Of a stretch of 64,000 nucleotides of DNA, positions 53,901 through 63,998 are shown one piece after another. The notes under the pieces were generated by a model. The model was not told where the DNA came from, did not search any database, and saw nothing but the letters and a program-made list of their open reading frames with translations. Source of the stretch: Mycoplasma sp. CAG:877 (lineage in GTDB: Bacteria > Bacillota_I > Bacilli_A > RF39 > UBA660); the NCBI GenBank assembly GCA_000433455.1, contig HF992500.1:32293-96292 (forward strand). Reading direction: 5' to 3'. The position numbers and the translations under genes were made by a program. Numbering within the stretch: the stretch's first letter is position 1; each line of letters begins with the position of its first letter.

Positions 53901-53928
53901 AGAAAAAGAAGTGTTATTGAACACTTCT
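53900..53928 (-). terminator. Terminator overlapping the stop of the 288-aa membrane protein gene
   Basis: Stem agaagtgtt / aacacttct (9 bp), loop attg, followed on the minus strand by TTTTTCTTT. Confidence 0.7.
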
Positions 53929-54780
53929 ATATAATTCTTGTAATTCTCTATATTTTGCTTGTTCTTTATCTATTCTTTCTTGTCTTTCTTTTTCTTGACG
54001 TTCTTTTTCTTTTTGTTCTTTTAGGATATTTAATAATAATTTATAGTCATCTATTGTTAATAAGTCATCATATTTAGCAGTATTTTCTTTTGGCTCTTTT
54101 TCTACTTTAATTGTATTATTAACAGCTTTTACTTGATATGGTGCCTCAATTGGTTTATAGTTTGCTGGTTTTTTTACGACCTTTTTAACTATAACTTTTG
54201 TAGGTACCTTTTCTTTAAAGAAGTATGGTTTGATGATTTTATAAATTATTAGAAAACAAATCCAAGCTATGAATATAGTACTTGTTAATTCGATTAGGGC
54301 TTGAGCTGTTGTATTTCCATAAACTGATGATTGATTAAAAACGTCTAGATTGTTTTCATTAATTATATTTAAAATTATGATTAAGATATAACTAATTACA
54401 CAATACATTAAAATATTTATTTTCTTTATTATCTTAGGCATTTTCTTACTAAAGACAGTTACTAAGCAAATTACATTAGAGGTGAGTATGGCTGCTAGAT
54501 AGATTGCTAAGTTTGGAAAATAGATGATTATAAATAAATTATTCATCATATAATCCATCATGTTACTTAGATTATCTTTATATACATATAGTACTATACC
54601 TATCAGTATCATATAAATTAAAACGTAGAAAAATTTAACTGGCTTTGCACTTTTTCTATTACTTGTTAAAAGTATTAGTCCTAAAGCAATTACTGCTAAA
54701 AGGATAACAAGATATAGTTTTGATGATTTTGTTAAATTGAATAAGACACTTAGTTTTTCTACAAATGTCAATCTTGCCAT
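53914..54780 (-). CDS. Hypothetical polytopic membrane protein with charged coiled-coil C-terminus
   Basis: Five to six TM segments, then KEQKEKERQEKERQERIDKEQAKYRELQELY. Confidence 0.5.
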   Translation of the reverse strand: MARLTFVEKLSVLFNLTKSSKLYLVILLAVIALGLILLTSNRKSAKPVKFFYVLIYMILIGIVLYVYKDNLSNMMDYMMNNLFIIIYFPNLAIYLAAILTSNVICLVTVFSKKMPKIIKKINILMYCVISYILIIILNIINENNLDVFNQSSVYGNTTAQALIELTSTIFIAWICFLIIYKIIKPYFFKEKVPTKVIVKKVVKKPANYKPIEAPYQVKAVNNTIKVEKEPKENTAKYDDLLTIDDYKLLLNILKEQKEKERQEKERQERIDKEQAKYRELQELYRSVQ

Positions 54781-54803
54781 AACCTCACCCTCTTTTTACT
54801 TTT

Positions 54804-55466
54804 TTAATTATCTGTTACTTCTTGAAGCTCTGCAATGTATACAGTCTGTGTTGTTGATTCATAGTTAGTACAAGTTACTAATGTTAAGGTTGTTTTATTA
54901 TAATCACGATAGATTCCTATTGTACCAACTTTATCTTGTTTATAGATATTAACTATCTTATAAGCATATTTTTTATTTTTGTATGTTACGTAAGCATAGT
55001 CACCTTTTGATAATTTGTATAAATCATTGAAGAAGGCTCTCCAACTATTACCTGAGTGACCTGCTATTATTAGGTTCCCTTTTTCTACATCTGGATAAGA
55101 TGATTCTTTTATTACTAAAATATTTTTATCTATATCGTTTTCTTTAGAATTTTTACTGTAGAAACCTTTTGTTAAATTTATCTTAGGTATATTTAAGTAA
55201 CCAATGTATTCATCTGTTACTTCTTCTTCTACTGTTTCTTCTTCATTATTACGAGTTCCGTCATCTACTATTATGTTATTAGTATTACTTGTGTAGAAGA
55301 CGTTGGCCATATAATCGTAGGCCATAATTTTTTTTGCTTGAATATAGTTATAAGAAAGAAAGAATCCCCCAATTAGTATGACTAACGCACAAATTGTAGT
55401 AGTTACACTAGGAGAGATTCTTGATTTCTTCTTTTTATTTTTTTGCATTCTTATATACAAATCCAA
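54804..55466 (-). CDS. Sortase-family transpeptidase (class D-like), atypical: no Arg downstream of the catalytic Cys
   Basis: N-terminal TM, His motif LIIAGHSGNSW and Cys motif LTLVTCT. The track start is TTG 55466; an alternative ATG lies at 55448. Overlaps the 3' end of the adhesin gene. Confidence 0.75.
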   Translation of the reverse strand: MDLYIRMQKNKKKKSRISPSVTTTICALVILIGGFFLSYNYIQAKKIMAYDYMANVFYTSNTNNIIVDDGTRNNEEETVEEEVTDEYIGYLNIPKINLTKGFYSKNSKENDIDKNILVIKESSYPDVEKGNLIIAGHSGNSWRAFFNDLYKLSKGDYAYVTYKNKKYAYKIVNIYKQDKVGTIGIYRDYNKTTLTLVTCTNYESTTQTVYIAELQEVTDN

Positions 55467-56961
55467 CAGTAGAACCTATTAATAATATACCTATTATAGT
55501 CATAATAATTGAACTTGTTGCTGCTGTATCTGGTACAGGTACTTCTGGATAGTTGTAGAATGTAACTTGATGAGTTGCATGATCTTCATCAATTGTTATT
55601 GTGATAACATCATTACTTTTCTTATAACCAGATGGTGCTTGTACTTCTTCAATTGTATATGTACCATCAGTTAAATCTGTAAATACTTTTGGATCTTCTG
55701 TAGTTTCGAATCTTGCTACTTCTTCTCCTTGAGCATTTTTAACTACTAGTACGGCTCCTGCTAAAGCTTTTCCAGTTGAACCATCAATCTTTGTAATTGT
55801 TACAACATTTGATTTAGCATCATTGTATACTTTTACGGTAATATTTCTATTACTATCTGTAACTGTAAATGATATTGGTTCTTTTAATTTTTTATAACCT
55901 GTTGGAGCTTCTATTTCTTCAACTGTATAACTACCATTTTTTAAGTTTCTAATTACGTGTGCATTTGTTGTTGATTTCCATCTAGTTATTTCATTACCAT
56001 TAGAATCTTTTAATACTAATGTTGCTCCTGCTAAAGCTTTATCTGTTGCTCTATCTAATTTAATAATTGTAATTTTTGATGATGATAGAGTTAATTTAGC
56101 TGTTGCTGAAACATTTTGTGTTTCTGGAGTTAAAACTGATGGATAACAGTTTTGCATCTTACTATTTGTTGGTTTATATTCATATGCTTTATTAACGGTT
56201 CCTGTTGCACTTACAGTAACTGTCATATTTAAGTTTGTATCTTTTACACTTGATGCTGGAATTCTTATTTTAAAACTTTCGGATTTATTGAAAGTTGTTT
56301 TTGAGTTTCCTTTAGCATCTGTTACGATTGTTCCTGTTGGAGCATTACTTACTGAAACTTTGTAAGTACTAATATTTGTAGAAGATACTGTAAAACTTTC
56401 TGATTCAAAATATTTTGAATCGCTAGATAATTGCATTTCACTATTTGATGTTGATAATGAAATACTTGTTTTAGCATATCCATTAGCTTTTGCTTGTTTA
56501 GCTCCAGCTACTAATTCTTTTACATATTTACGGATATTGTTAGGGTCACTTGCTGTTTCCTTAAATGCTCTTGTTAAGTTTGATGAACCAGTAGTATCAT
56601 CTAAATACCACCAAACAGCAGTTTGTGTTATATAATAATCTTTTGATGAGTCTCCTGTTATACTTGCTTTAGGATAACCATGTTCCATTAAGTAAGCAAA
56701 TCCAGCATCTAGTTCTCCAACTAATGTTGCTGTTACATTTTGACTTGTTGATTTGTGATAATCTAAGCAATATACATATTCACCAGATGATAATAATTTT
56801 GTTTTAAATGATAAATCAGCTAAGTATGCAGGTAATTTAGTTCCTGAACCTAGTGAAATAGTTTGTGCTACGGCACTAACATTTAAAATGCCTGTTGCCA
56901 TTATAATTCCAGAGAAAACTATAACAGCTAATAATTTTAACTTTTTCAATATTGATTTCAT
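55435..56961 (-). CDS. Cell-wall-anchored adhesin: thioester (TQXA) domain + Ig-like region + two CnaB/SpaA-type repeats + non-canonical VPDTA sorting signal
   Basis: Signal peptide MKSILKKLKLLAVIVFSGIIMATGILNVSAVA. Thioester Cys context EYVYCLDYHK and Gln context YYITQTAVWWY. Two repeats of LAGAxLVxK...G(S/T)YT(V/I)EE(I/V)(E/Q)AP(T/S)GYKK. C-terminal PVPDTAAT, hydrophobic segment and KNAKK. I start at ATG 56961 (SD AAAGGTGA). Confidence 0.85.
   Translation of the reverse strand: MKSILKKLKLLAVIVFSGIIMATGILNVSAVAQTISLGSGTKLPAYLADLSFKTKLLSSGEYVYCLDYHKSTSQNVTATLVGELDAGFAYLMEHGYPKASITGDSSKDYYITQTAVWWYLDDTTGSSNLTRAFKETASDPNNIRKYVKELVAGAKQAKANGYAKTSISLSTSNSEMQLSSDSKYFESESFTVSSTNISTYKVSVSNAPTGTIVTDAKGNSKTTFNKSESFKIRIPASSVKDTNLNMTVTVSATGTVNKAYEYKPTNSKMQNCYPSVLTPETQNVSATAKLTLSSSKITIIKLDRATDKALAGATLVLKDSNGNEITRWKSTTNAHVIRNLKNGSYTVEEIEAPTGYKKLKEPISFTVTDSNRNITVKVYNDAKSNVVTITKIDGSTGKALAGAVLVVKNAQGEEVARFETTEDPKVFTDLTDGTYTIEEVQAPSGYKKSNDVITITIDEDHATHQVTFYNYPEVPVPDTAATSSIIMTIIGILLIGSTVGFVYKNAKK
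55545..56085 (-). repeat. Two tandem ~270-bp coding repeats (CnaB/SpaA-type domains) inside the adhesin gene
   Basis: The protein segments SKITIIKLDRATDKALAGATLVLK... and NVVTITKIDGSTGKALAGAVLVVK... are collinear. Confidence 0.8.
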
Positions 56962-56979
56962 AATTTTCACCTTTCCCCT

Positions 56980-57021
56980 CAAATGTGGCTATATTATACC
57001 ACATTTGCTATTTTTTTGCAA
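56980..57021 (-). promoter_or_regulatory. Promoter TTGCAA-N17-TATAAT of the adhesin-sortase operon with a perfect 9-bp inverted repeat (CAAATGTGG-N10-CCACATTTG) bracketing the -10 box
   Basis: -35 at 57016-57021, -10 at 56993-56998, inverted-repeat arms at 56980-56988 and 56999-57007. Confidence 0.5.
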
Positions 57022-58873: not shown

Positions 58874-59905
58874 TTATGAGTTCTCTTTTAGGAGAGAAAT
58901 AATAGGTTTTTGATTTTGTTTTCTTAAACTTAGTATGCAAATTATGATTAGTAGTATAGAAATGGGAATTATAATTAATAGTATTATCACCATAAATTCA
59001 AGGTGGTTTAAGTAGGTCTTTGAGATTAAGTGAAACTTGGTTAAAAATGTATATACTATACTTAGAATAATATATATTAAGAGTGAATTTTTTATATTTT
59101 CTTTGCTTATACTTAAGACTAGTAATTTTAAAATTTTTGAATTATGAAAACCATATATTTTTAGGAGAGCTATATCTTTACTATTAGTATTTATTAAGTC
59201 TTTTGTTAGAAGTGTTAGAGTGTTTATTATTAGTAAAATTATTAGTACTTCCCCTATCAAGAATACTTTTAAGATAAGATTATACATTTTAATATTTTGT
59301 TGGTTTGAGTCATTTTGAATTAGTACTTCACAGTTATTTTTTGACAGTTCTTTAGAAACATAATTTATATTATTATAATCATCAACTATAATATTAAATT
59401 CATTTTTAGAAAGTCCTTTATTTAGCTTTTTCATAAACTCTTCTGATACAATTATTTCATTTGTATTAAGATATTTATTATCGTGTTTACCTACTACTTT
59501 GAAGATATACTTTTCGTTATTTAGGTAAAGTATTATTGAATTTGACTTTATGTCGTTTGAGACTATAACTTGATTAGACGATAAGTTTGATGTATGTACT
59601 TTCGCAAAGTTTAAATTGTAGTAGTTTAAGACATATTTACTGTTGTTAGTATCAAACATTATAGTACTTGGGTAGTACTTTGAAACTGAAGTGATGTGAT
59701 TTATTTTATTTAGACTATTAATATTTTCTGTAGTGCAGCCGATAGTTAAAACTCTATTTTGTAGTTTGTTTTTAATAGTAGAAGTATATATATTGTTAGT
59801 ATAATAATGACTAGTAAGTAGTACTATTAAAATTATGTTTGTGAAGATGTAGAGAAAATAATATTTTTTATTACTTTTATTTTTTCTTGTGATAATGTTT
59901 AGCAT
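58874..59905 (-). CDS. FtsX-family ABC permease (type VII / MacB-LolC-like topology), shorter paralogue
   Basis: TM1 (YFLYIFTNIILIVLLTS), a ~170-aa extracytoplasmic domain, then three C-terminal TM helices. Confidence 0.7.
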   Translation of the reverse strand: MLNIITRKNKSNKKYYFLYIFTNIILIVLLTSHYYTNNIYTSTIKNKLQNRVLTIGCTTENINSLNKINHITSVSKYYPSTIMFDTNNSKYVLNYYNLNFAKVHTSNLSSNQVIVSNDIKSNSIILYLNNEKYIFKVVGKHDNKYLNTNEIIVSEEFMKKLNKGLSKNEFNIIVDDYNNINYVSKELSKNNCEVLIQNDSNQQNIKMYNLILKVFLIGEVLIILLIINTLTLLTKDLINTNSKDIALLKIYGFHNSKILKLLVLSISKENIKNSLLIYIILSIVYTFLTKFHLISKTYLNHLEFMVIILLIIIPISILLIIICILSLRKQNQKPIISLLKENS

Positions 59906-59906
59906 A

Positions 59907-61127
59907 TTACTCCTTTATACTTTCGATTATGTTCATATTAAAGACTTTTTTATTATAAATACTTGTAGAAATGTTATATGTAAGAGCTATTACTAGAATT
60001 GATAAAACTATAGAACTACAGTCTATACAAATTGGTATTTTAGAAAATATTAATGGTCTAAAATAAATAATTGTTTTATAGATAATTTGAAATATTGTAA
60101 TAGATATAATAATTATAAGAAAAATTATAAGGACTAAAAAGTTAGTATTTAGATAATTTAATTTTTCTATATCTTTGTTCTTGTATCCAATAGTTCTTAA
60201 AATATTGGTATTTATTATGAGTAGATTAAGATTCTTTTCAGTTATATAAATAATCGTTATAAAAGAAAAGATTAGGCATAGTATTGTTACTACATAGACT
60301 ATGGTATTTAAAATATCTATTAGAGAATAGTCAAATTCTAAAATTCGGCTACTATTATATTTTCTTAGAGAGTTTAACTCATTGATTACTGAATCTACAT
60401 TGTTTATTGAATCTACTTGAACTACTATTGAGTCAATTTGATTTGATAAATCTACATTTTCATAGGTATCATTATATATTTCTCCTAATAAATTATAGTC
60501 GCCATAACAACTTGATTCGTCAAGATAGGCTTTACTGTTTTTATAGGTTCCAACTATTTTTAATTTTGTTGTTTTCATTTCTAGTTCATCTGTATTTTCA
60601 TTTATTATCTTAGGATATTCTACTACTATTTCTTGGCCTATTAGTTTTTTCATAGTTATGAAGTCTTGCTTTTTTAGATTTTTATTGGCACCAATATTTT
60701 CTGATGGATAAAATATTTCCGGACAAACTATTTCATTTTTATTTTGAATACTTTTACCAGCTGTTACTGGTGGATGAGTTTTATTAGTACTTCCAGTTAG
60801 AGAAAAGTCTCCAGAAAAATATTTGTTTTTGGTAGTTAAGATTGTGTAATAAGCAGTATCACTAAATACGGCATCTACGTGATTTATCTTTTTTATTTCA
60901 TTAATGGCAGTTTCTTCTTCTGTATCTTCGTTTCTAAGTACTGATATTGTTCTATAACCAGGATCTTTCTCAATACCAGCAATGAAATATGTTTCAATAG
61001 TCTTTTTGTATGAAAAAATAAAGATTATAGTAAGGGCTAGAAAAAATAATATAATTATTGTTTTAGTATTCCTTTTTTCTCTTAGAGTATTTGTTAAAAC
61101 GTAGTCTTTGTAAATATCCTTATGCAT
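59907..61127 (-). CDS. FtsX-family ABC permease (MacB/LolC-like topology)
   Basis: TM1 (TIIILFFLALTIIFIF), a ~230-aa extracytoplasmic domain, then three C-terminal TM helices. 8-nt overlap with the ATPase gene. Confidence 0.75.
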   Translation of the reverse strand: MHKDIYKDYVLTNTLREKRNTKTIIILFFLALTIIFIFSYKKTIETYFIAGIEKDPGYRTISVLRNEDTEEETAINEIKKINHVDAVFSDTAYYTILTTKNKYFSGDFSLTGSTNKTHPPVTAGKSIQNKNEIVCPEIFYPSENIGANKNLKKQDFITMKKLIGQEIVVEYPKIINENTDELEMKTTKLKIVGTYKNSKAYLDESSCYGDYNLLGEIYNDTYENVDLSNQIDSIVVQVDSINNVDSVINELNSLRKYNSSRILEFDYSLIDILNTIVYVVTILCLIFSFITIIYITEKNLNLLIINTNILRTIGYKNKDIEKLNYLNTNFLVLIIFLIIIISITIFQIIYKTIIYFRPLIFSKIPICIDCSSIVLSILVIALTYNISTSIYNKKVFNMNIIESIKE

Positions 61128-61800
61128 TTTTTATAATCTCCAAACTTCCATTTTTCATTTTTAAAACTACATCAGCATAGTTTAGGGCCTTACTATTATG
61201 ACTTACTACAATTACACATTTACCGTCTTTAACTATCTTTTTAAATGTTTGATAAATCTTTTCTTCGTTTTCTGAATCTAGAGAGGCAGTTGGCTCATCG
61301 GCTAAGATTATACTTGGATTATTGGCAAGAGCACGGGCAATAGAAATTCGTTGTTGTTCTCCTCCAGATAACTCTTTTGGAAAATGATTTTTTCTATGTA
61401 ACATGTCTACTTGTTCTAGTAATTTTTCTCCTTCTTGTAAACGTTCTTCTTTTGACATTTTAGATAAGTATAAAGGTACTATTACATTTTCTAAGGCTGT
61501 TAAATTAGAATTAAGATATATTTGTTGGTAGATAAAGCCAATATTTTCTTTTCTAATATCAGCAAGATGATTACTTGATAAATGACTTACATCTTTATTA
61601 TTTATTTTTAGTGTTCCAGAAGAAAAGGTATCTATAGTTCCTACACATTGTAAGAGAGTTGTTTTGCCAGAACCACTCTTTCCAGTAATTACATAAAACT
61701 TACCAGATTCAAATTTAAAATTTACATTGTTTACGGCTGTTATTTCTTCTTTATTTTTGATATATGTTTTAGTGCAAGAATTTAGTTCAATATTAATCAT
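61120..61800 (-). CDS. ABC transporter ATP-binding protein (MacB/LolD-like)
   Basis: Walker [10 protein letters not shown], signature [15 protein letters not shown], Walker [17 protein letters not shown] upstream. Confidence 0.9.
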
Positions 61801-61817
61801 TATGACCTCCGATTTAA

Positions 61818-61847
61818 TAATAGGCCGAATTTATATCGGCCTATTTA
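61818..61847 (-). terminator. GC-rich hairpin between the small-protein gene and the ABC ATPase gene (leaky terminator / attenuator candidate)
   Basis: Stem ataggccga / tcggcctat (9 bp), loop atttata. The tail on the minus strand is only moderately U-rich (UAUUAAAU). Confidence 0.45.
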
Positions 61848-61862
61848 TTTACATTATATTTT

Positions 61863-62294
61863 TTAGTAACTTTGCATTTTTACATAATCGGAATTTACTC
61901 CTGAGTAATATGCACCAGTACCACCACTACCAGTTGCGGCATTTTCAAATGCACTAAAACTATATAGCTTTTTACCAGAGCCTATATTTCCCATATAGGT
62001 TGTTGTTGTATTTCCAAGTGACAAACTTGCTACCTTAGTTGCCTTGCTGTTAAAATCTCCAAATATTCCTTTTGTTCCAATTTTGATTACTAATTTTTGT
62101 GAAAGTTCAGGAGCTGGAAATTAATCTGCTCTTATACTAATTTTGTGATTTGTGTTCGTATAATCTCTTACAGCTCCTGTATGTGTTGACCCTGGTGAAA
62201 TATATAATGTACTTGTATACGATGCTGCGGCTGCTAATGTTATTATAGGAATCAACATAATTGTTGCTCCTAATATTGCTATTTTTCTTTTCAT
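61863..62294 (-). pseudogene. Small secreted Ser/Thr/Gly-rich protein gene (142 sense codons) interrupted by one in-frame TAA (62123..62121); absent from the ORF track
   Basis: My translation reads MKRKIAILGATIMLIPIITLAAAASYTSTLYISPGSTHTGAVRDYTNTNHKISIRAD*FPAPELSQKLVIKIGTKGIFGDFNSKATKVASLSLGNTTTTYMGNIGSGKKLYSFSAFENAATGSGGTGAYYSGVNSDYVKMQSY*. It has a clear signal peptide, and 85 further codons stay open in the same frame after the TAA. Confidence 0.65.
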
Positions 62295-62410
62295 TTTTTT
62301 CTTTTCCTTTCTTATTTTTATTAAATAGTACTACTTTTACCTCCTTTCTATTGTGCGATGCAAATCCTTACGCATGCACTGTAGTACATAATACTTCACT
62401 CTTCTTACTT

Positions 62411-62775
62411 TTAAATTGTTATGTCTACACCTTGCATTGCATCATAAATATTTTGGGTGCTTCCATTAAATAAAAATACGTGACCATATCCAAGATATGA
62501 AAAGCTGGAATTTTGGCTGACTGCTAAAGTTGGGTTACTAGATGATATTTTTGGAGTAATATTTAAACTTAAACCACTTCCATTAAAGTATGCACTAATG
62601 ACATCATAACTTCTTACACTTGTATTACTTAGCCATGTTAACGTGGCAGAAACATAATACATGCTTGTGCATGAGGATGCTATTTTTAATTGATTGTTAC
62701 TGTTGTATGAATACTTCCTCTTGTTGTTGTGCTACTACCTATTATTGTTTTTTTGTAACTTCTTGATTTTTTCAT
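62411..62775 (-). pseudogene. Diverged paralogue of the 61863..62294 small protein; start codon and body are in different frames and the signal-peptide core is missing
   Basis: ATG 62775 opens MKKSRSYKKTIIGSSTTTRGSIHTTVTIN*. The -1 frame is open from 62731 (..KRKYSYNSNNQLKIASSCTSMYYVSATLTW...) to the stop at 62411. The track shows only the last 83 aa. It has collinear motifs with the neighbour: R.Y(S/T).N(S/T)N, then 43 aa, then LSL, then 18-19 aa, then SFS. Confidence 0.5.
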
Positions 62776-62810
62776 ATTCTCTTTTCTTGTCCTTATTTTA
62801 ATATATTAAT

Positions 62811-62844
62811 AAAAGAAAAGACTAGAACTTGTTAAGTTCTAGTC
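62811..62844 (-). terminator. Strong rho-independent terminator directly after the XRE regulator gene
   Basis: 11-bp perfect stem gactagaactt / aagttctagtc, 3-nt loop, followed on the minus strand by TTTTCTTTT. Confidence 0.8.
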
Positions 62845-63934
62845 AGGATAGTAGGTATTTATTTAGGTAATTATCGGTAAAATTTCGATGTAGAGTGTCA
62901 TCTTTATCAGATGAAGATTCTTTAGAAGTAATTTTTGTATTAGTTGACTTTTGATAAAACAAATGATTTGTTTCTAAGAAATAAAACCACTCTTCTTTTT
63001 GATTATCTTCTGTTTTGATGACTTCTAATTGTTTTTCTTCTTCAAAATATACGAAGATAAGATTAGCAGTTTCATAGATATAACCATCCCTATCTTTTTT
63101 GCCTTTATTTTTGATACTTTCAATTATATTCTTTTTCTCTGGAGTTAATTCTGATTTAGTAGTTTTTGAAGAAGTACCATCTGATATTTTAGTTTTCTTT
63201 TGAAAGATAATGTTATTATTTGAAAAGTCTTTTGTTACATTTAATTTTATTGTTTCTTTTTGGGAGTTAGAAAAAGTTATTTGGAGATATAAATTTTTAA
63301 TTATAGTGTTTACTTTGTTAAATGGGAAATAAGCATCATAACCATAATAGTCAGTTAGGAGAAGGCTTTCCGACTCTGTTTCAACAAGTAAGTAGTCTTT
63401 GTTTTTTATCTTGTAATATAATTTTATTTTGGATATTTTTACATTTGGTTCATGAGTTATTTCACCTAATCTAAAATATGTCTTTTGTCTTGTTGTGATA
63501 AAAATACCATTGGTAGTTGCGAAGTTTTTTCCTTCGCCATCTACTCTATAAACTTTTATAGAATTATAGGAGTTAAGAAAATAATATGATAAAAAGGTGA
63601 TAAGTAGTATTAATATTACCGCTGTAAAAGTAAGAGATATTTTCTTAATTTTTTTACTTTCTTCGTTAGTTTCGTCTAATATATTTAGAGTTACTTTTTC
63701 GAGTGTTTTTATGCTCTTTTTTGGAATTTTTTCTCCGGCTAATATTTCATTAATTGATACAGCGAATATTTCACTTAGTTTTATTAATACGGAAGAGTCC
63801 GGAATAGTTATTCCTCGTTCCCATTTACTTACTGCTTGTCTACTTATAGGAATCATGTCGGCTAATTGAGTTTGACTGAGATTCTTTTTCTTACGTAAAC
63901 TACAGATAAACTTACCTATTTTTTGTTGGTCCAT
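62843..63934 (-). CDS. Membrane-tethered XRE-family transcriptional regulator with ~240-aa extracytoplasmic C-terminal domain
   Basis: HTH_3 motif IGKFICSLRKKKNLSQTQLADMIPISRQAVSKWERG, a single TM (ISLTFTAVILILLITFLSYYFL) and an uncharacterised C-terminal domain. Ends in TGA and is followed by a strong terminator. Confidence 0.85.
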   Translation of the reverse strand: MDQQKIGKFICSLRKKKNLSQTQLADMIPISRQAVSKWERGITIPDSSVLIKLSEIFAVSINEILAGEKIPKKSIKTLEKVTLNILDETNEESKKIKKISLTFTAVILILLITFLSYYFLNSYNSIKVYRVDGEGKNFATTNGIFITTRQKTYFRLGEITHEPNVKISKIKLYYKIKNKDYLLVETESESLLLTDYYGYDAYFPFNKVNTIIKNLYLQITFSNSQKETIKLNVTKDFSNNNIIFQKKTKISDGTSSKTTKSELTPEKKNIIESIKNKGKKDRDGYIYETANLIFVYFEEEKQLEVIKTEDNQKEEWFYFLETNHLFYQKSTNTKITSKESSSDKDDTLHRNFTDNYLNKYLLS

Positions 63935-63969
63935 ACTTTTTCTCCTCTTGGGTCTTTTTGTATGAGTTT

Positions 63970-63998
63970 AGTATACTATGCTTTAATCTTTTTTTCAA
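63970..63998 (-). promoter_or_regulatory. Sigma-A type promoter TTGAAA-N17-TATACT for the XRE regulator gene; the -10 lies within a 10-bp palindrome TAGTATACTA
   Basis: Read on the minus strand, with SD AGAGGAG downstream. Confidence 0.45.

Follow-up and report, generated by a model that had tools for sequence, protein, structure and literature searches.

A composite locus in a low-GC gut bacterium joins a membrane-anchored regulator cassette to a secreted protein with a candidate ABC self-protection system

The window analysed here is a stretch of 64,000 nucleotides from contig HF992500.1 of Mycoplasma sp. CAG:877 (assembly GCA_000433455.1, positions 32,293 to 96,292), and the locus in question lies on its minus strand between positions 58874 and 63998. 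It carries a regulator gene, the remnant of a gene for a secreted protein (A), a gene for a second secreted protein (B), an ATP-binding cassette (ABC) ATPase gene and two genes for FtsX-like permeases (table 1). The region is a composite of two uncharacterised cassettes, each of which is conserved separately in low-GC gut Firmicutes. Unit 1 consists of a regulator with an XRE-type helix-turn-helix (HTH), one transmembrane (TM) helix and an ectodomain, followed by A, whereas in Unit 2 the gene for B precedes those for a MacB-type ATPase and a pair of paralogous FtsX permeases. All of the genes and RNA signals listed in the first-pass annotation, which was made from the letters of the sequence, were found again where it had placed them. 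A look-up of the exact protein sequence of the 406-aa permease returned the same locus on eleven contigs, six of which were retrieved (L001-L006; loci are referred to by such numbers throughout), including human-gut metagenome assemblies. Over the 5.2-kb module these are 99.9-100% identical to the window, and across the six independent assemblies the regulator, the ATPase and the two permeases keep their full length and show few or no differences, a single codon of B being the exception.

Table 1. Features of the locus, with positions in the window.
Feature	Position	Strand	Evidence and remarks
Promoter-like site TTGAAA-17-TATACT	63970..63998	-	10/12 match; ~30 nt upstream of ribosome-binding site (RBS) AAGAGGAG
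Transmembrane XRE-family regulator, 363 aa, intact	62843..63934	-	HTH_3, one TM helix, ~246-aa uncharacterised ectodomain
Intrinsic terminator after regulator gene	62810..62844	-	11-bp perfect stem, 3-nt loop, T run
A pseudogene	62411..62775	-	tblastn, three-frame profile search, DNA alignment to L007 and L026
Promoter-like site TTTAAA-16-TATTAT, B transcript	62388..62415	-	9/12 match; just upstream of 5' hairpin
B mRNA leader	62339..62379	-	Stem-loop 62379-62353 and Shine-Dalgarno (SD)-like GAAAGGAGGT at 62348-62339; no start codon after SD
B gene, 143-codon precursor	61863..62294	-	Signal peptide and ~119-aa mature part; TAA at codon 58 (62123-62121)
Hairpin between B and ATPase genes	61819..61845	-	10-bp perfect stem, weak U tract
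ABC ATPase, MacB/LolD/FtsE type, 226 aa	61120..61800	-	PF00005, E=1.6e-32
FtsX/MacB-type permease 1, 406 aa	59907..61127	-	4 TM helices (hydropathy); orthologues carry PF02687
FtsX/MacB-type permease 2, 343 aa	58874..59905	-	Three clear C-terminal TM helices (hydropathy); orthology and paralogy

In every B locus that has enough flanking sequence, the B gene is followed by the ATPase gene and by two FtsX-type genes. This order was observed in L001-L006, L007-L009, L010, L014-L016, L020, L021, L022, L026, L084/L087 and L105-L107, and it spans B identities down to about 35%. Synteny in relatives had been named beforehand as a test on which the proposed link between the small protein and the transporter could fail, and the succession of small protein, hairpin, ATPase and two permeases turned out to be strongly conserved. 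The relatives also contain the intact copies that were sought: the whole six-gene arrangement of Unit 1 and Unit 2 recurs intact in L007, L026, L084/L087 and L105-L107, and the complete 143-aa B gene is intact in L001-L004. The flanks of Unit 2 are different in every lineage. In L020 (5041-11696) it stands directly behind an Agr-like set, which comprises LytTR, a HATPase_c_5 kinase, AgrB and a 46-aa AgrD-like gene, and a VanZ-like gene lies directly downstream of it; VanZ-like genes adjoin Unit 2 in L007 and L014 too, making three relatives in all. Serine recombinases, a tyrosine integrase or Rep genes are found near Unit 2 in L010 and L007-L009.

The three transporter genes are closely packed, the ATPase stop codon overlapping the start of permease 1 and a gap of one base separating permease 1 from permease 2. 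The top NCBIfam models for the ATPase are LolD, DarD, the Lcn972-group ATPase, FtsE and MacB, all of them below their family cut-offs, and its predicted membership in the type VII (MacB/FtsX) group holds at the superfamily level only. Permease 1 has an extracytoplasmic domain of about 235 aa between TM1 and TM2. Permease 2 is 36% identical to permease 1 over the C-terminal 135 residues, and the hidden Markov models (HMMs) of the two cross-match. The earlier description of an ATPase with two different FtsX permeases stands as far as the genes, their sizes and their layout are concerned, but the window permeases themselves score below the cut-off for PF02687 (15.9 and 13.3 bits, against 25.5). 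The family is above threshold in the permease 1 orthologue of L007 (28.8 bits) and on record in those of L020-L022 and L105; for permease 2 it is on record in L020, L021 and L022, while the L007 and L010 orthologues remain below threshold (21.5-24.3 bits). Judged by the orthologues that pass and by their topology, the window permeases are probably of FtsX type. The LolCDE-like architecture that had been proposed, with one ATPase and two different paralogous permeases, is borne out by the gene order and the cross-matching HMMs. For the ectodomains of the permeases, Pfam, NCBIfam, PADLOC, PHROGs and PDB sequences provided no known family, MacB_PCD being without a match in the Pfam scan, and a word-indexed search for homologues of permease 1 returned close relatives only.

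The gene for B was described in the first-pass annotation as encoding a small protein with a signal peptide and one in-frame TAA, and this is what the window contains. However, the codon concerned reads TCA (Ser) in all five of the contigs that cover it (L001-L005). Since these five near-identical contigs read Ser there and the gene is intact in sister strains, the window B is either a nonsense allele private to this assembly or an assembly error. The claim that both small-protein genes are inactivated can thus be kept for A, which is a remnant in every conspecific contig covering it, but the stop in B occurs in this assembly only, and the 'lost toxin' state that was read into B comes down to one base, which is possibly itself an error of assembly.

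The N-terminus of B is rich in Lys, continues into a hydrophobic stretch and ends in AAAA-S; it is a predicted signal peptide of type I, without lipobox or anchor. The mature protein of the window species would have 119 aa, a mass of 12.6 kDa and a pI of 9.5, and the median pI of mature B over 107 family members is 9.0. A word-indexed search found eight homologues of B, a close B alignment that was used for a metagenome scan found no match, and an HMMER profile run against 1.84 billion representatives found 119 clusters (E<1e-3, 50% identity). Nearly all family members are 130-150 aa long, and they share the signal peptide, a mature start of the form YTSTL..S..S...G..R.Y and a C-terminus of the form GSGK.Y.F ... 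V.M.SY. Mature B is better conserved than its permeases and is under purifying selection. An AF2 model (pLDDT 78.9) places the signal helix at residues 2-20, followed by a nine-strand beta-sandwich.

Several RNA signals surround the B gene. The promoter-like site upstream of it could be the promoter of the B transcript. The leader contains the GC-rich hairpin and the orphan SD without a start codon that had been pointed out earlier. In the window, L007 and L010, the start of B is preceded at a distance of 52-82 nt by a non-initiating AAAGAAAGGAGG (77-82 nt in L007 and L010, whose mature B proteins are 64-72% identical), and the upstream non-initiating GAAAGGAGG is conserved in three lineages. 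A conserved upstream mini-ORF (open reading frame) behind the orphan SD was considered and rejected, as no start codon is conserved across these three. The leader probably stabilises the mRNA from its 5' end in the manner of a STAB-SD, comparable to that of Bacillus thuringiensis cry3A, in which a strong SD-like leader sequence without a start codon lies upstream of a highly expressed gene (PMC4113751); the resemblance to cry3A is one of sequence and position alone. The hairpin between B and the ATPase gene (61845-61819; -15.9 kcal/mol, z=-3.3) is present as first reported, although its stem has 10 bp and not 9. A hairpin follows B in seven lineages (the window, L007, L010, L014, L020, L021 and L105), with a stem sequence that differs in each. 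This hairpin probably either terminates part of the transcripts or stabilises the 3' end, so that B could exceed the transporter in amount. Taken together, the recurrent hairpins after B and the conserved non-initiating SD-like element suggest that B is made in excess of the transporter; the high-expression signals and the leaky-terminator layout noted in the first pass both recur in relatives.

The regulator of Unit 1 agrees with its earlier description as an XRE protein with an HTH, one TM helix and a large outside domain: its N-terminus matches HTH_3 in Pfam (E=4.5e-16), hydropathy detects a single hydrophobic helix at residues 99-117, and about 246 residues lie C-terminal to it. This post-TM domain is conserved in an alignment of 24 family members and is presumably extracytoplasmic, an orientation deduced from the cytoplasmic HTH. 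Searches of Pfam, NCBIfam, PADLOC, PHROGs and the PDB gave no domain match to the ectodomain, the HTH alone being recognised. The promoter claimed upstream of the gene exists as a site with 10 of 12 matching positions, but with 33 such matches, where shuffling of this AT-rich DNA (27% GC) leads one to expect 34.3, there is no enrichment, and the site can be called a plausible promoter only. The terminator behind the gene, by contrast, is as strong as had been stated (hairpin 62844-62820, 11-bp stem, -13.9 kcal/mol, z=-5.2). An equivalent hairpin trails the regulator gene in L007, L026, L013 and L105, and its presence in the first two rules out that a rearrangement had moved the terminator. In having an N-terminal HTH, a single TM helix and an extracytoplasmic sensor domain, the protein resembles the membrane-anchored one-component systems known as transmembrane transcription regulators (PMC10269533). 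It differs from them in that its ectodomain matches no known domain and in that it is almost invariably paired with one secreted family, A. In L014 (2259-3004) the regulator gene is split into an ORF of 80 aa and a part of 145 aa that extends from the HTH through the TM helix into the beginning of the ectodomain; A is absent there and the B cassette is intact, which looks like another decayed state of Unit 1 beside an intact B cassette.

In L007 the gene that stands between those for the regulator and B encodes a secreted protein of 239 aa that belongs to family A (family size about 240 aa). This intact A matches the window in tblastn with E=2e-23 and an internal gap of 51 residues, and a three-frame profile search shows that the 83-aa ORF at 62662-62411 retains A-profile positions of about 95-150 and 200-241 in one frame. 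Missing are the signal peptide, the helical domain at the N-terminus and the core, which contains the invariant motif YASYQHA. A DNA alignment of the window, L007 and L026 begins where the regulator gene ends and continues through the A start codon; because the window ATG at 62775 stands at the end of this aligned stretch, the original start of A has probably been retained, and the ORF that begins there today is short and out of frame (MKKSRSYKK...). Exactly the same remnant is carried by the conspecific contigs L001-L004, and wherever a conspecific contig covers A, the gene is a pseudogene riddled with deletions. The idea that the two small proteins are paralogues has to be abandoned. No BLASTP alignment was obtained between the 83-aa ORF, which is the remnant of A, and B, and in a profile-profile comparison of the two families (hhalign) the signal peptides alone align, with a probability of 16%; the families are unrelated.

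Family A comprises 253 clusters in a word-indexed search (E<=0.01, clusters at 90% identity), and no match to it was found in Pfam, NCBIfam, PADLOC, PHROGs or PDB sequences. In its AF2 model (pLDDT 86) a small N-terminal domain of helices is joined to a sandwich of Ig-like type, the latter weakly resembling CnaA-type adhesin and pilin domains in a Foldseek search of the PDB. To the loci retrieved earlier, eighty metagenome loci with A were added for a census that used local HMMs and all-against-all clustering, the regulator being recognised through its ectodomain. In 71 of 83 loci the regulator is the gene immediately upstream of A, with both on one strand, and in most of the others the contig ends close to A. 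Most of the regulator-A loci have no ABC genes nearby. The locus is therefore not the single module that the first-pass annotation had proposed, as the regulator and A form a separate two-gene cassette that is not tied to the transporter. In the loci in which A is followed by ABC genes, there is also a small secreted protein, which is B itself or, in L083 and L085, a B-like protein of 136-146 aa. These B-like proteins are signal-peptide proteins of 146 aa (L083, 9754-10194) and 136 aa (L085, 12720-13130), which adjoin ABC genes and yet fall below the B-HMM threshold of 1e-4; the family of small partners is therefore probably wider than 119 clusters.

Some of these loci have been reorganised. 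A rearranged stretch in L023/L032 (7001-14022) carries the regulator, A, an ATPase, an FtsX gene, a B-like 143-aa protein, a 368-aa membrane protein and a second ABC set, whose ATPase is a pseudogene split into pieces of 157 aa and 75 aa. L024 (2031-5175) contains the same regulator-A-ABC locus as L023 from another sample, and in L024 the end of a prophage, which encodes a tail protein, a CHAP/CW_7 endolysin and a reverse transcriptase (RVT_1), has been inserted just upstream.

In the lineage of the window the locus is decaying. In L013, a relative with 83% identity in permease 1, the regulator lacks its 5' part and permease 1 is truncated; A and B are both absent, as the regulator terminator is followed directly by the RBS of the ATPase. 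Truncated 248-aa variants of the permease are also on record. The L013 contig (CAVKYO010000010.1, 25.8% GC) is labelled as a metagenome-assembled genome of Acidaminococcus fermentans and is very probably mis-binned.

What could such a locus do? The anatomy of Unit 2, with a putative promoter of its own, a probably stabilised leader, a cationic protein predicted to be exported by Sec, a conserved hairpin and tightly coupled ABC genes, fits an abundant secreted product that is accompanied by a lower-level dedicated type VII ABC machine. We tentatively favour the view, on which our own opinion is close to evenly divided, that Unit 2 encodes a new Sec-dependent bacteriocin-like protein with type VII ABC self-protection, which is decaying in this lineage. 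B would have a promoter of its own and a transcript with a stabilised leader; Sec would export the protein, which would be set free as a cationic beta-sandwich protein of about 12.6 kDa, and the hairpin after B would pass only part of the transcription into the three transporter genes. The ATPase and the permeases would form a heteromeric type VII (MacB-like) ABC machine, which might spend ATP on keeping B off the envelope of the producer or might otherwise handle B at the outer membrane face. Unit 1 would combine a membrane-anchored one-component regulator that has an extracellular sensor domain with A as its cognate secreted protein, and where the two units adjoin, the regulator would probably also control Unit 2. 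The genes present, their synteny, the hairpins and the states of decay are observations, and secretion, partial termination, the parts of toxin and immunity and the targets of the regulator belong to the model. A wider proposal, that the B family as a whole consists of unrecognised Sec-secreted cationic beta-sandwich bacteriocins of about 12 kDa with LolCDE-like self-protection, and that the regulator and A constitute a new protein-ligand signalling pair that can be wired to it, is doubtful.

The closest functional parallel is offered by the lactococcin 972 (Lcn972) loci, which consist of a Sec-dependent beta-sandwich bacteriocin and two presumed immunity/transport genes (PMC11796350). In these loci (lcn972; scbABC), as in Unit 2, an unmodified Sec-dependent beta-sandwich protein is encoded first and genes for membrane protein and ATPase follow; they are often under quorum-sensing or dedicated regulators, and natural variants exist that lack the bacteriocin and keep the downstream genes (PMC11796350). 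In pneumococcal scbABC, 27.5% of the strains have lost the bacteriocin and keep only the presumed immunity/transport genes (PMC11796350). The order of genes differs, Lcn972 loci having one large DUF1430-type membrane protein and then the ATPase, whereas in the window the ATPase comes first and is followed by two separate 4-TM FtsX permeases. We propose only that the locus works like the Lcn972 loci, and membership in the Lcn972 family is rejected: the Pfam family (PF09683) is matched by none of 107 B members and TIGR01653 by one, below threshold (E=0.004); the permeases do not match TIGR01654/DUF1430, and the ATPase reaches 191.1 bits on TIGR03608, which has a cut-off of 254.85. The bacteriocin-plus-immunity analogy drawn in the first pass is consequently kept in a circumstantial form, with the Agr and VanZ neighbours, the cationic B, the variable contexts and the scbABC precedent on its side and no sequence link detected either to lactococcin 972 or to its transporter families.

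With respect to the transporter, Unit 2 resembles LolCDE in having one ATPase and two non-identical paralogous 4-TM MacB-type permeases with large extracytoplasmic domains, and LolD is the top NCBIfam model for the ATPase. Nevertheless, the ATPase scores 215.4 bits on TIGR02211, below the equivalog cut-off of 307.75, and the conserved partner of Unit 2 is a secreted protein that is not lipidated. The hosts appear to be monoderm Firmicutes, judging by the sortase and pilin genes of the window and the sporulation genes of relatives, and no LolA/LolB route is therefore expected in them; LolA/LolB genes were not searched for. MacB-type transporters are known to protect Gram-positive producers from their own toxins, as YknXYZ does against SDP and as is the case for AS-48EFGH, and together with BceAB these systems represent ABC proteins of MacB/FtsX architecture that act on own or foreign envelope-active peptides (PMC5985334). 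Compared with YknXYZ, no YknX-type membrane-fusion adaptor is seen in the gene lists; compared with BceAB, the window locus has two separate 4-TM permeases and lacks a 10-TM BceB-type permease, a histidine kinase and a response regulator. What sets Unit 2 apart from the Gram-positive MacB-type systems is that its permease pair is heteromeric and is accompanied by a dedicated secreted protein of about 140 aa.

A number of observations weigh against a bacteriocin function of B. No member of the B or the A family has a known activity. B has no meaningful match in Pfam, NCBIfam, PADLOC, PHROGs or PDB sequences, and the best that Foldseek offered for it in PDB and BFVD were generic jelly rolls with TM-scores of at most 0.5 (CBM36, PirA, the C-terminal domain of Clostridium perfringens enterotoxin, endospore appendage subunits and phage tail-tip proteins), which were not used for assigning function. 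Of the checks that had been suggested, profile and structure searches with the small protein and profile searches with the C-terminal domain of the regulator led to no family for either. Set against the Lcn972 sequence (2LGN), the B profile obtained an hhalign probability of 0.3%, and mature B is about 119 aa long as compared with 66 aa for Lcn972. Even in the Lcn972 loci the immunity role of the FtsX-type genes is unverified (PMC11796350). That B is better conserved than its permeases is not what is usually shown by toxin-immunity pairs, which diversify. No operator shared by the promoter regions of the regulator, A and B was found, and both partial termination after B and XRE control of Unit 2 are deduced from sequence.

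In an alternative reading, B would assist a detoxifying type VII ABC transporter from outside the cell, as an accessory or by capturing its substrate, and the XRE-TM protein would be the sensor; the whole would be a module of resistance to envelope stress or antimicrobial peptides that can be compared with BceAB/YxdLM-YxeA or YknXYZ. MacB/FtsX-type ABC genes do mediate peptide-antibiotic resistance in Gram-positives (PMC5985334), VanZ-like genes adjoin the cassette in L007, L014 and L020, and B always accompanies the transporter and outdoes the permeases in conservation. We nevertheless consider such a role unlikely, because the type I signal peptide provides B with neither lipobox nor anchor, a conserved hairpin separates B, with its much higher expression signals, from the ABC genes, and neither a two-component system nor a 10-TM BceB-type permease is present; moreover, B is truncated in this strain beside intact transporter genes, and in one relative the cassette comes under an Agr-type system, as secreted effectors typically do. 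It is less likely still that A and B have a structural role at the surface or in a matrix, as beta-sandwich subunits of a fibre, sheath or coat, for which the FtsX-type ABC would be a mechanotransmission device of release or assembly, as FtsEX is for wall hydrolases and LolCDE for lipoproteins. The jelly rolls that Foldseek places beside B include Bacillus endospore appendage subunits and phage tail-tip proteins, A is placed among CnaA-type adhesin and pilin domains, and both the strong-expression signals and the purifying selection on B would suit an abundant structural protein. Yet all of these structural matches are weak (TM-score 0.3-0.5) and generic, neither A nor B has an anchoring motif, be it LPXTG, SLH, LysM or another, most occurrences of A lack ABC genes altogether, and the distribution is patchy and island-like, with genes that are easily lost within a species group.

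A further explanation bears on present activity and leaves the identity of the system aside, which makes it compatible with the other readings: the locus may no longer function in this genome and may be a decaying remnant in which the regulator and the transporter have not yet degraded. The pseudogene state of A in all covering conspecific contigs, the nonsense codon of B here, the losses and truncations in L013 and the 248-aa permease variants all point in this direction. Against it stand the full-length regulator, ATPase and permeases, maintained with little or no change in six independent assemblies, and the B gene, which is intact in L001-L004 and has Ser at codon 58 in L005 as well; we regard the remnant explanation as improbable, to about the same degree as the structural one.

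Two gene clusters neighbour the locus. Just downstream of it, on the minus strand of the window (53914-56982), is a sortase-dependent pilus or adhesin cluster. It encodes a sortase (54804-55466), a protein of 288 aa that has no Pfam hits and one of 515 aa that combines TED thioester and SpaA/Cna-B domains with a sorting signal of the VPDTA type. Beyond the right end of the window, as seen in L001 (1712-7069), an arginine deiminase operon lies directly upstream of the regulator gene and encodes arginine deiminase, ornithine carbamoyltransferase, carbamate kinase and a DcuC-type carrier; the same stretch holds a 217-aa polytopic membrane protein of unknown function.

The ABC superfamily itself is known, but the layout of one ATPase with two permeases recurs here in seemingly monoderm bacteria and always with a secreted protein of about 140 aa, and A, B and the ectodomain of the regulator match none of the curated libraries searched. 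These are three families with clear genomic partners, which makes them directly testable. That the regulator so constantly accompanies A hints at an unexplored link between a membrane-anchored transcription factor and a secreted protein. If the bacteriocin-like reading of Unit 2 is true, Firmicutes of the human and animal gut would carry an unannotated class of protein antimicrobials together with their self-protection machine, and a LolCDE-like heteromeric type VII ABC architecture would have been put to a new task in monoderm bacteria. Such loci would then shape competition at the level of strains, and the broken and the intact B would constitute a natural pair of non-producer and producer.

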